A stretch of DNA of 64,000 nucleotides from NCBI GenBank assembly GCA_021846505.1, contig JAJZWV010000006.1, positions 14,448 to 78,447 on the forward strand, written 5' to 3'. Source of the stretch: Bacillota bacterium (GTDB lineage Bacteria > Bacillota > Sulfobacillia > Sulfobacillales > JAIMBI01). Shown piece by piece: positions 21,560-25,258 of this stretch (position 1 is the stretch's first letter; each line of letters starts with the position of its first letter). The translations under genes and the position numbers were made by a program. Under the pieces are notes generated by a model. The model was not told where the DNA came from, searched no databases, and saw only the letters and a list, made by a program, of their open reading frames with translations.

Positions 21560-22033
21560 TCGGCTGTGCATTGGCATACTGCTGGATGTACCGGGACGGA
21601 AAACTGCGCGTTCTGAGAGAGAAGCTGCCGACGGGTACCATCATCGTCAAGCCACCGAAGGCGCTGCCCACGGGGCGTGTACGCCCGCGTGTCGTCGTCC
21701 GATCAGCGTTCGGATCTTGAAGGGCAGGTGGCGTCCGGCCTGAACGGCCATCGGCCTAAGCTGATGAAACTCCGCGCGGACCCATCGGGGGCCATCGTGG
21801 CGGTGGAGCACCGCGATCGGCTGATGCGAGTCGGCGCCGAGTACGTCGAGGCGGCCCTGGCCGCGCCACGACGTCGCCTGGTCGTGGTAGACCCGGGCGA
21901 AACCCCGGACGACCTCGTGCACGACATGATCGAAGTCCTGACGTCGTCTTGCGCCAGGCTGTCCGGCCGGCGCTCGGCTCGGCCCCGAGCGAACCGCGCG
22001 GTGAAGTGCGCCGCCGAGGCATCGGCGTCATGA
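21560..22033 (+). pseudogene. tnpA: IS607 TnpA serine recombinase, frameshifted
   Basis: MerR-like N-terminus (WMYRDGKL..LPTGTIIV) is in a different frame from YARVSSSDQRSDL..SGLN..VEHRDRLMR..DDLVHDMIEVLTS. Confidence 0.85.
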
Positions 22034-23018
22034 CCGTGAAGCAGGCGTGGCGGTGCGACCTGGCGCCAACGACGCGCCAGGCGAACCTGCTCGCGCGCGC
22101 CGCCGGCCCGGACCGGTTCGCGTGCCACTGGGCCTGGCCCTTTGCCGCGGCCTTCTTGGCACGAACCGTCCCGTCCCCAGCGAACCCGAACTTCACCGTC
22201 TGTGGCCCGGGTGCCAGCGGGAGAACGCGCCGCGGTGGTCCGAGGTGTCCCAGTGTCCCCCCAGGAAGCCCTGCGCGCCCTGCGGCGCGCGGTTGACCAC
22301 TTCTTCGCGTCCCGGCCAGGGCAAGCGCGAGCGCGCAAAGATTGGCTTCCCCGTGCCCTCCAGAAGGGCCGGGACGACCGCTTCCGCCTGACGGGCGCGA
22401 CCCGGGTCGGGCGTCCTGGCGTAAAGCTCCCCCGGATCGGCGGGGTGCGAACCGACCCGCCGACGGCGAAGTGCCGGGGGCGGTCCGCGGCGGGGCGGCG
22501 CGAGGCCGATCGCTGGCCCGCCGCGGACCCGGTGAAAGTTGAGCGCCCCGACGCCCAGCCCCACGCGGGCGGCCTCGGCGGCGGGGACCTCGGGCTCAAG
22601 GCGTTCGCCGTCCTCTCCGATGGCACCCTCGTCGTGCCCGAGCAGGCGCTCTCCCGGGCCCTCACGGCCTGGCGGCGTCGCCGCCAGGCCCACGCAAACA
22701 GCGTGGGGCCAAGAGACGGCGCCAGTCCGCGCTCTCCCGGGCTCGGCTCCATCGTCGTGTGCGCACCCGCCGCCTGGCGCGGGCGATCTCCGGGGGGCGT
22801 TTCGCCGCCTGCTCGCATACAAGGGCCCGTGGGACGGCCGGCGGATCGTGGAGGCCGACCGCTGCTACCCTTCCTCGCCGACGTGTTCCGACTGCGGCAC
22901 CGTGAAGGCGGAGCTGGCCTTGTCCGAGAGCCTCTTCCGGTGCGAGGCGCGTGAGCTTAAGACCGACCGCGATCTGAACGCGGCGATCAACCTGGCGCAT
23001 TTCACACAGGCGGTTTAG
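22030..23018 (+). pseudogene. tnpB: TnpB RNA-guided nuclease, multiply frameshifted and internally deleted
   Basis: AWRCDLAPT N-terminus, GDLGLK (RuvC-I), LAYK, PSSPTCSDCG zinc ribbon and DRDLNAAINL (RuvC-III) lie in different frames. Confidence 0.85.
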
Positions 23019-23700: not shown

Positions 23701-24140
23701 ACGGGCGGGCCAGGAATCCCGGCGCCCGATGAGCAGCCTGACTAGACCGCTCACGCAGTGAGGCTGGCGACTGCGTCGACCTGGACGCAGGAGCCCTAGG
23801 GAATGAGGCAGCGGTTGAACTCCCCAAGGAGCGCAGCGCCTCGAGCACGGCATCGCGGGCCAGCTCCTGTCACTCCTACAGCGCCGCGAGGCCACGGAAA
23901 CGCCGTTCCGCCTGTGGCCGGGGAACATTGCACTCTTTTCGTTCATTGGGGAGGTCGCTGTCGCGTTGCGCGCCCTCCTGACGTTTGGCCGTGGTCTCTT
24001 AAGATTCCCCGCGTGGGCAACCCGTGCTGGGCCAGGGAGAATACTCCGTCCACGCCGTCACGGCGCACATCGCTGCCGAGCACCACGAGCCGCTCGGCTC
24101 GCCTCTCGCGACCGACTCTGGCCGGGCCCCGCCAACACCG

Positions 24141-24172
24141 CAGCGGGGCACTTCTGTAGGAGTGCCCCGCTG
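24141..24172 (-). terminator. Hairpin closing the copZ-metallothionein unit
   Basis: Perfect 12-bp stem CAGCGGGGCACT/AGTGCCCCGCTG about 45 nt after the stop; weak U-tract. Confidence 0.5.
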
Positions 24173-24216
24173 GTCCGGGCCCACGGCCCCAAGCCCATAG
24201 CGCTGGAGCCCCGCGC

Positions 24217-24357
24217 CTACGGCGCCGAGCTGTTGTCCTTGCATTCGCAGTGCGCGCAGCTGCACATCGACCCGCAGTTGCAGTCGTGATCACATTGGTC
24301 GCCGCGGCAGTTGGTGCAGCAGCAGTGGCCCGCATCCTCCGTCCCGGTCGCATCCAT
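24217..24357 (-). CDS. Metallothionein-like Cys-rich peptide (46 aa; alternative ATG at 24384)
   Basis: MDATGTEDAGHCCCTNCRGDQCDHDCNCGSMCSCAHCECKDNSSAP: 11 Cys, 3 His, no aromatic residues; directly downstream of copZ. Confidence 0.7.
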   Translation of the reverse strand: MDATGTEDAGHCCCTNCRGDQCDHDCNCGSMCSCAHCECKDNSSAP

Positions 24358-24463
24358 CGCGGACACTGTTCGGAGCCTCGTCATCGTCGTCGCCGCCTTC
24401 CGCATCAATCTCGGGCACGCGGCTAGACTTTACCGCTTCACCAAAAACATGCGCCCGACTGCA

Positions 24464-24679
24464 CTAGGCGACGTGGTAGCCGGCCTCTTCAATGGCGTGG
24501 GCCAGCGCCTCCAGGCTGGTGGCGCTGGGGTCGTACGCCACGTGCGCCCGCTCCTCTTCCAGGGAAACCTTAACGGTTTCGACGCCCGGCACTCCTTCGA
24601 GCGCTTCGCTCACGTTCATCACGCAGTGGTGGCAGGTCATTCCCGTCACCTTGATGTCTGCTTCAGCCACGCTGGCCAT
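24464..24679 (-). CDS. copZ: Copper chaperone CopZ (HMA domain)
   Basis: GMTCHHC metal site, C-terminal AIEEAGY, AAAGGAGG RBS. Confidence 0.93.
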   Translation of the reverse strand: MASVAEADIKVTGMTCHHCVMNVSEALEGVPGVETVKVSLEEERAHVAYDPSATSLEALAHAIEEAGYHVA

Positions 24680-24768
24680 GTAGCGCCTCCTTTAACTTGC
24701 CTGCGAGCGGCGGGATCGCCGCCCTTACGCGCCAACCTCCTGCCGCTCGCGCCTCTTGGCTCACCGCG

Positions 24769-24797
24769 ATTATACCCCATGCGCGCCTGGAGTTCAC
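24769..24797 (-). promoter_or_regulatory. Probable copZ promoter with CsoR-like half-site
   Basis: GTGAAC-N17-TATAAT; GGGGTAT overlapping the -10 resembles half of a CsoR operator. Confidence 0.45.
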
Positions 24798-24907
24798 GCA
24801 CTGCCATTGCTATCTAGAGGGAACTGAGGCACGTTGTGCAATGGCCGGCGCAAAGTGCTATGATGGTCGGGGGGTTGGGGGCATGCGCCACCGAGGAGGA
24901 ATCAGCG

Positions 24908-25258
24908 ATGGCACTCGAACAGGACAAGCGTGACCGCGCGCCGGCAGGGGATAACGCCCACTGTCCCGTGGCGCTGACGGCCCGGCTGATTGGCGATCCC
25001 TATATCTTGATGATCTTGCGCGACTTGGCCAATGGCACGCTGCGGTTTGGGTCGCTGTCCGACTCGGTCAGCGTGAACCCGCGCACACTGACCGCCCGGC
25101 TCCGCCGCATGGAGCACGACGGGTTGGTGCAGCGCCACATGTTTGCCGAAATTCCGCCGCGGGTGGAATACACGCTCACCGAAAAGGGGCAGGCGCTCCT
25201 GCCGGTGGTGGCGGCGCTGCGCTCATACGGCGAGGCGTGGCTGGTCGACCCTGTTTGA
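24908..25258 (+). CDS. HxlR family winged-helix regulator
   Basis: CPV..TARLIG, LRF, L..RLR.ME.DGLV.R..FAEIPPRVEYTLTEKG. Confidence 0.92.
   Translation: MALEQDKRDRAPAGDNAHCPVALTARLIGDPYILMILRDLANGTLRFGSLSDSVSVNPRTLTARLRRMEHDGLVQRHMFAEIPPRVEYTLTEKGQALLPVVAALRSYGEAWLVDPV

Follow-up and report, generated by a model that had tools for sequence, protein, structure and literature searches.

The gene considered here encodes a small cysteine-rich protein and lies directly downstream of copZ in a 64,000-nucleotide (nt) stretch of a contig (JAJZWV010000006.1, the stretch being called the window) from a Bacillota bacterium of the order Sulfobacillales. The systems closest to it in kind are the bacterial metallothioneins and a copper store of sporulating Bacillus. 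SmtA, which binds Zn4, folds in a zinc-finger-like manner and contains aromatic residues and His ligands, and MymT has Cys-His motifs, fewer cysteines than the protein studied here, and no CCC triplet. The review sections consulted, PMC7558416 among them, name SmtA/BmtA (including Pseudomonas proteins) and MymT as bacterial metallothioneins, the latter being a copper metallothionein of pathogenic mycobacteria, 4.9 kDa in size and predicted to bind up to six Cu(I) (Gold et al. 2008, through PMC7558416). In the portion of PMC9484137 available, Csp3 of B. subtilis is a sigma-K-dependent Cu(I) store in the mother-cell cytosol that serves the coat laccase CotA, and the other known copper enzymes of spores are given as cytochrome oxidases. 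Within the parts of the sources covered, this mother-cell route from Csp3 to CotA is the sole precedent for spore metal handling that we found.

The gene of the window and its relatives appear to form a family apart from these systems. Like MymT, they encode small, unannotated, Cys-rich bacterial proteins with ties to copper, outside the SmtA family and missed by gene callers; as far as description sets the two apart, MymT is copper induced in vegetative cells of a different phylum, whereas the family described here has a forespore-type motif upstream. With SmtA/BmtA (PF02069) the proteins share a bacterial origin, small size, richness in Cys, and the metal-thiolate cluster kind. They differ in escaping the PF02069 model, in lacking an aromatic core, and in having a core without predicted structure, apart from one five-residue helix (residues 48-52). 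Csp3 offers a precedent for cytosolic Cu(I) storage wired to sporulation, but it is a Cys-lined four-helix bundle of the mother cell, whereas the members of this family are peptides of 35-58 amino acids (aa) with no helix bundle and with a forespore-type motif. By the operational definition the protein is metallothionein-like, and its sequence appears to place it in no described family, MymT being compared by description only. We therefore rate it as a new and apparently unrelated metallothionein-like family in a new regulatory setting.

The reading towards which we lean, on balance, is that of a metallothionein-like family, probably Cu(I) binding, made in the forespore from a promoter of its own. 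What we infer here is that the protein binds metal, that the metal is copper, that expression takes place in the forespore, and any transfer from CopZ. The thiolates would fold around a polynuclear metal cluster, as in a metallothionein, and Cu(I) would be the favored metal because of the gene neighborhoods. A forespore-type promoter of its own would lead to a protein made mainly in the developing spore, because that promoter is of the kind preceding spoVT throughout the order. Once in the spore, the protein might sequester copper, hold it in protected form until outgrowth (to supply haem-copper oxidases, for instance), or do both. As the gene sits behind copper genes in two lineages, read-through from copper-handling genes and hand-over of metal by CopZ are possible second inputs.

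Word searches of the literature, with subscription journals mostly outside their reach, turned up neither such a family nor any bacterial metallothionein linked to sporulation. If true, a third unrelated family of bacterial metallothioneins would widen a short list. It would also place a metal-thiolate protein within the spore, where the handling of metals is poorly understood. As the hosts come from mine drainage and are kin to acidophiles used in biomining, the family may also bear on metal tolerance and spore survival in such settings.

An eleven-cysteine family and the described metallothioneins

The Cys-rich open reading frame (ORF) is a real, conserved gene under purifying selection. A six-frame genome search found the peptide in three other genomes of the genus at 82-89% identity, and a profile of 13 members, again searched in six frames, located the family in 26 of the 45 genomes of the order, in 11 of its 15 genera, and in 17 of the 31 genomes with completeness of 90% or more and contamination of 5% or less. 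All 32 loci fetched have an intact ORF. The initial annotation had drawn attention to the cysteines, and this TBLASTN-type search bears out their conservation: in an alignment of 30 distinct members from many genera, the 11 Cys are the only invariant residues after the start. Their spacing is CCC-x2-C-x4-C-x3-C-x-C-x3-C-x-C-x2-C-x-C, with a three-residue insertion in two members. TGC and TGT both occur at every one of the 11 Cys columns, and the 10 pairs with usable divergence have a median dN/dS of 0.03. Eleven invariant Cys in 30 members, synonymous Cys codons, and so low a dN/dS together lie far beyond chance. The N-terminal stretch, by comparison, is variable and comprises only 3-8 residues in many members.

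In the initial annotation the gene was a 46-aa ORF. That ORF is present exactly as MDATGTEDAGHCCCTNCRGDQCDHDCNCGSMCSCAHCECKDNSSAP (24217..24357, minus strand), and its composition is as described, with 11 Cys within 28 residues, three His, and no Phe, Trp, or Tyr. The start codon did not hold, as the four other genus loci have ACG (Thr) in place of the proposed ATG. What is conserved is an ATG at 24384, 27 nt further 5', which all five loci keep together with the GGAAGGCGG that precedes it; in other genera, GGAGG-type ribosome sites stand at the same place before the starts of the members. Because this start is conserved and the other is not, we give the window protein a length of 55 aa.

Within the range searched, the family is confined to a single order of Bacillota, which is high in GC and forms endospores. 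A phylum sample drawn evenly (401 genomes, among them one other genome of the order) yielded a match in the window's own genome alone (E ≤ 0.001), with none outside the order. Searches of called proteins recover little of the family. A protein homologue search with the 46-aa peptide had no match, phmmer against 1.84 billion representatives found one protein, and profile searches of the protein libraries returned P0003, P0004, and P0005 only. Across two libraries (5.8 billion clusters and the 1.84 billion representatives) this makes three called proteins, one of them named "hypothetical protein," against at least 32 intact genes in 26 genomes, which shows how much gene callers miss. A search for related loci with a narrower alignment gave five, all in metagenome-assembled genomes of Bacillota.

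The protein has the low molecular weight, the conserved Cys-rich motifs, and the few or absent aromatics by which metallothioneins are operationally recognized. Cysteine makes up 20% of the window protein (11/55) and 39% of its 28-residue core (11/28), arranged in CC, CxC, and CxxC motifs. Across the 30 members, aromatic residues amount to one Tyr in the core and a few in the N-terminal tails, with none in the window protein, and His residues stand beside Cys in many members. The proposal that the protein falls outside the SmtA/BmtA family agrees with our searches: PF02069 (Metallothio_Pro) matched 0/30 members in a Pfam scan at E up to 10, the family profile met no SmtA chain in the PDB at E up to 10, and neither Pfam nor NCBIfam matched the window protein at E up to 1. 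The Csp proteins are likewise distant, as there is no Pfam match to DUF326 and the predicted model has one five-residue helix and not a four-helix bundle. Csp3 itself (DUF326) was detected in 1/45 genomes of the order with a short model that was positive for the B. subtilis control.

A likeness to eukaryotic metallothioneins had also been suggested, and this stands in part. Run against 177,635 PDB sequences, the family profile touches metallothioneins alone, namely, wheat Ec-1 (E = 0.012) and the beta domains of vertebrate MT-2 (E = 2-3.7), and the C-terminal CxCxxxCxCxxCxC of the family recurs in CTCAGSCKCKECKC of MT-2 and in two segments of Ec-1. No chain of a Neurospora metallothionein is among the PDB matches at E up to 10. 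In the Pfam scan, Metallothio_Euk matched 5/30 members (best, 0.047) and the fungal Metallothio_11 matched 4/30 (best, 0.032), all below significance and neither in the window protein; one member had a chance-level match to Cry1Ac_D5 (E = 3.3). The curated thresholds of the eukaryotic families (PF00131, PF12749, PF02066, and others) were not reached, and the N-terminal CCC-x2-C-x4-C-x3-C half of the family has no counterpart in vertebrate, wheat, or fungal metallothioneins. The eukaryote-like look would then be a resemblance of short motifs that carries no statistical weight, most simply explained as convergence of short Cys motifs.

Structure prediction yielded no usable fold. The AlphaFold2 model (30-row alignment) has no strand of three or more residues, and its sole helix lies at the C-terminal edge of the core. 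Mean pLDDT is 62, with about 70-74 in the core, and a strand-less model of low pLDDT is what would be expected of a metal-dependent fold. Foldseek found nothing like the model in the PDB at E up to 10. Feature neighbors in the ESM Atlas are unnamed clusters (0.84-0.86) and three metallothionein clusters (0.77-0.81), all below the counting level and useful as leads only.

A candidate forespore promoter upstream of the gene

The gap between copZ and the Cys-rich gene contains a block, GCATG-N17-AAGTCTA, that is the best-conserved part of the gap in 5/5 loci of the genus. When the 90 nt 5' of the starts are aligned, the pattern G[CT]AT[A/G]-N17/18-(GG)CAnnCTA emerges across genera, whatever the upstream gene. 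By a simple score the motif is present in 24 of the 31 relatives' loci, always 20-40 nt before the start; among 3100 random windows from the same loci, 101 reach that score and 26 do so at that position. The block of the window occupies the matching position. Where the family gene follows a cluster of copper genes (see below), the motif sits between the DUF4396 gene and the Cys-rich gene.

The nature of the motif is suggested by spoVT. Using a matrix built from all 20 non-redundant sites of the metallothionein-like (MT) genes, we found that 29/30 spoVT upstream regions across the order score at least 10 bits and 27/30 at least 12 bits (median, 17.9), compared with 14 and 11, respectively, of 600 control windows. 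The spoVT sites read GCATAA-N17/18-GATATACTAC and lie 26-42 nt before the start (29-33 nt in 28/30). As the same motif precedes spoVT in 29/30 loci, we take it to be a promoter of forespore type, that is, of the sigma-F/sigma-G type, and leave the sigma factor unnamed because the genes for small acid-soluble spore proteins (SASPs) carry a related but different motif. In the text available of PMC3789822, spoVT is probably a direct target of sigma-F and sigma-G, both consensus sequences being alike, and that of PMC4383634 gives GTATA and GGGGAGGCTA as a sigma-F-type promoter.

The setting is one in which such a promoter could work. SASP genes occur in 44/45 genomes of the order and spoVT in 43/45, from which it follows that the order forms endospores. 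The window's genome has alpha/beta-type SASP genes, gpr, spoIVB, spoVAC, and spoVT; a search for spoIIR with PF09551 gave no match. Scanning this genome with a weight matrix made from other genera only (18 non-redundant motif sites) returned 23 sites of at least 16 bits. By Pfam, the genes 3' of the best sites are two ClpP-like genes, DUF421/YetF, YIEGIA_cap, Spore_YtfJ, and a SASP gene, with PrkA, a GH18 enzyme, and an amino-acid permease besides, and the sites of spoVT and a second SASP gene score 14.4 and 12.6 bits. Genes for TepA-like ClpP, YetF-family, and YtfJ proteins belong to forespore regulons in B. subtilis. Upstream of gpr lies a related GTATA...GAATGCTG, which scores only 4.7 bits.

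Several observations weigh against this assignment. No motif is recognizable in 7/31 relatives' loci, and the loose pattern is not enriched genome-wide, with 35 sites compared with ~45 in shuffles. The window's own copy is a weak match of 6.0 bits, a level reached by 1485 sites in the genome; for the window's genus the promoter reading draws on position and on conservation in 5/5 loci. The main SASP genes of the order have a related but distinct motif, and with the MT matrix none of 32 regions upstream of SASP genes scores as high as 12 bits, a result that rules out the motif as simply the SASP promoter. For the main alpha/beta-type SASP genes (L113-L142) we read GGGTAA-N17/18-GATA[CA]TA ~27-28 nt 5' of the start. 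Two classes of forespore promoter may exist in the order, a SASP type and the GCATAA...CTAC type that spoVT shares with the Cys-rich genes.

Another small ORF rich in Cys (62 aa; G000:C7:9397-9585, plus strand) lies outside the window, ~5 kb before its first base. Its numerous Cys are arranged in CxxC and CxC motifs. It has no Pfam match, and it is preceded by a strong forespore-type motif, GCATAGTG...ACATCCTA (15.4 bits).

Gene neighborhoods, metal preference, and competing explanations

Within the genus of the window, copZ stands directly upstream of the family gene and on the same strand in 5/5 loci from four genomes, separated from it by 79-106 nt; the spacing of about 100 nt given in the initial annotation is 106 nt when counted to the ATG chosen there. 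One of these genomes (G002) carries two such units (L058 and L059, on C37 and C52), on short contigs with coverage of ~1.7-1.8, and the bin may combine more than one strain, in which case the unit need not be duplicated.

A second copper context is found in two other genera. In G040 the genes on one strand run csoR, copA, copZ, a 231-aa ORF, a Sco1/thioredoxin-like fusion, DUF4396, and the Cys-rich gene, with csoR matching Trns_repr_metal at 8.4e-28 and copA encoding 810 aa with an HMA domain. The 231-aa ORF has no Pfam match in G040, and its G038 counterpart weakly matches DsbD_TM. The core of this cluster is common to G040, G038, and G021, that is, to three loci in three genomes (L069 with L090, on G040:C397; L070, on G038:C236; L068, on G021:C77). 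The cluster of csoR, copA, copZ, and sco ties the uncharacterized DUF4396 to copper handling; the single paper found to mention DUF4396, PMC7760498, places it, in the part consulted, at the flanks of a metal-resistance island. In a further arrangement, nine loci from two genera adjoin ctaB, and five of these also adjoin coxI, with a DUF2231-cytochrome c gene and an unrelated GH31 gene.

The metal-handling neighbors seen are copper ones only (copZ, copA, csoR, sco, and cox/ctaB), and no zinc or cadmium gene of the Zur, ZnuABC, CzcD, or CadA type appeared among the neighbors scanned. The g11 neighbor was considered as a copper-containing CO dehydrogenase and rejected, as its large subunit has the form-II AYRGAGR motif and hence no copper site. 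The neighborhoods also speak against a copper role, in that most loci have no adjacent copper gene and instead have neighbors such as EPSP synthase-family genes, polysaccharide deacetylase, LysR, Crp, GH31, and form-II CoxL/M. Because kin share synteny, the contexts reduce to about three independent arrangements. Moreover, 11 Cys fit a four-metal divalent cluster, as in metallothionein alpha domains, equally well.

The initial annotation saw the gene as forming a unit with copZ, as a minimal module passing copper from chaperone to sink. Spelled out, this would be one copper-stress operon, transcribed in vegetative cells from the TATAAT promoter, in which CopZ delivers copper to a cytosolic peptide sink that replaces the pump. 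The shared strand and short gap in 5/5 loci of the genus speak for it, as do a hairpin placed only after the second gene and the fact that this copZ is the genome's only stand-alone copy (tblastn otherwise finds two N-terminal CopA domains in a genome that is 96% complete). A second lineage has the gene at the end of a csoR-copA-copZ cluster, and transfer from CopZ to a storage protein has a precedent in the Streptomyces Csp, according to the part of PMC7558416 consulted. We nevertheless hold such an operon to be rather unlikely. Linkage to copZ is not a general feature, being confined to one genus while most members have no copZ nearby, and a conserved block resembling a promoter of the spoVT type occupies the gap. 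Nor does the genome lack a pump, which the csoR-copA pair on contig C44 provides, and the copZ promoter has no full CsoR palindrome that is conserved. The best reading is that the Cys-rich gene is probably not simply the last gene of a copZ operon. A predicted complex of CopZ with the Cys core scored 0.02 against a mark of 0.32, which is no evidence either way.

The remaining alternatives keep the spore setting or the peptide itself and change its function. A spore metallothionein for divalent metals (Zn, Cd, and perhaps Ni or Co), built around a four-metal, eleven-thiolate cluster and with incidental copper neighborhoods, would suit the 11 Cys, which equal the ligand count of the M4S11 cluster of alpha domains, and the His beside Cys in many members. 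Wheat Ec-1, the best PDB match, is a zinc protein, and a search of sequencing runs for this DNA listed no RNA run but four DNA runs of one study labeled mine drainage metagenome, two of which may be its source, such waters being rich in several metals. With copper genes as the only metal-handling neighbors and none of the zinc or cadmium type among the neighbors scanned, we regard this as unlikely. A role without metal, be it as a forespore reserve of cysteine or sulfur, a thiol redox buffer, or a structural spore peptide cross-linked by disulfides, seems to us decidedly unlikely. The type of promoter shared with spoVT and small spore proteins, a size within the range of SASPs, and the lack of a metal gene near most loci would all suit it, but a reserve or buffer needs no exact spacing of 11 Cys across many genera, and this spacing matches that of cluster-forming metallothioneins. 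The repeated recruitment of the gene behind copper genes also argues against a non-metal role, and coat proteins are made in the mother cell. Finally, short length, abundant Cys, and a variable N-terminal stretch that might act as a leader could indicate a small iron-sulfur protein or the precursor of a peptide that is synthesized by ribosomes and then modified. This is highly improbable given that no radical-SAM, cyclase, protease, or exporter gene recurs among the neighbors, that the N-terminal stretch is so short in many members, and that neither the ferredoxin pattern CxxCxxCxxxCP nor a Pfam match is present.

The preferred reading, a forespore-made and probably Cu(I)-binding protein, can be taken further, though only tentatively. 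The family might be the first of the metallothioneins in Bacillota and the first under sporulation control, with a small Cu(I)-thiolate protein that is loaded by CopZ in the forespore, disarms copper in acid waters rich in metal, banks it in the dormant spore, and allows haem-copper oxidases to be remetallated at germination. It would then be, in this order, a forespore counterpart of the mother-cell Csp3 of Bacillus, a system that the order largely lacks.

Organization of the locus

The gene, copZ, the hairpin, and the motifs are all on the minus strand of the window, and the regulator gene beyond copZ is divergent.

Features of the copZ locus, in window coordinates
Feature	Position	Strand	Remarks
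Hairpin, 12-bp perfect stem and 8-nt loop	24141..24172	-	3' of the stop codon; no U-tract; probable transcript end
Cys-cluster (metallothionein-like) gene	24217..24384	-	55 aa, stop codon included; start and ribosome site conserved
Shine-Dalgarno-like GGAAGGCGG	24393..24401	-	8 nt 5' of the ATG at 24384; invariant in 5/5 genus loci
GCATG-N17-AAGTCTA in the gap between copZ and the Cys-cluster gene	24424..24452	-	-35-like GCATG, 24448..24452; -10-like AAGTCTA, 24424..24430
copZ, HMA-domain copper chaperone, 71 aa	24464..24679	-	Pfam HMA E = 1.2e-18, residues 9-69; MTCHHC motif
GGGGTATAAT, -10-like element 5' of copZ	24769..24778	-	Invariant in 5/5 genus loci; flanks diverge
HxlR-family regulator gene, divergent from copZ	24908..25258	+	Pfam HxlR 2.9e-22; membership in the system uncertain

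The assignment of copZ is further indicated by NCBIfam TIGR00003 (62.9 bits against a cut-off of 62), with the CopZ equivalog models at 69-79 bits, below their cut-offs. Upstream of it, the TATAAT element with GGGGTAT that had been noted is indeed present, as GGGGTATAAT, a decamer that occurs three times in the whole genome. A simple sigma-70 scan found no acceptable -35 for it, and a simple promoter scan of 24050-24900 called nothing. The GGGGTAT is conserved in 5/5 loci of the genus, where a conserved palindromic left half was not seen, and full ATACCCC...GGGG palindromes precede the csoR genes that this genome has on C44 and C97. That copA and csoR are not adjacent to copZ also holds, as the pair is located on contig C44; two further CsoR-family genes lie on C97 and C65. 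The 5' leader of copZ (window about 24700-24753, minus strand) has ~30-37 bases more than in the other four loci of the genus, and these include a 9-bp inverted repeat, GCGAGCGGC...GCCGCTCGC.

The reverse complement of the start of the HxlR gene appears, as read from the alignment, to be conserved 5' of copZ in 4/5 loci of the genus (L057 being the exception). The regulator has a Cys near its N terminus (NAHCP), and it could be a thiol-based sensor for copZ or for the downstream gene of metallo-beta-lactamase fold.

On the other side of the locus, the hairpin 3' of the Cys-rich gene was found as the initial annotation had it, and a simple terminator scan over 24050-24900 did not call it. Elsewhere in the genus, a different GC hairpin takes the equivalent place. 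Just downstream of the gene is a decayed IS607-like element (window 21677-23018, plus strand), consisting of a truncated resolvase-type gene (Pfam Resolvase, 4e-07) and a C-terminal piece of TnpB (Cas12f1-like TNB domain, 6.1e-16) in broken frames.

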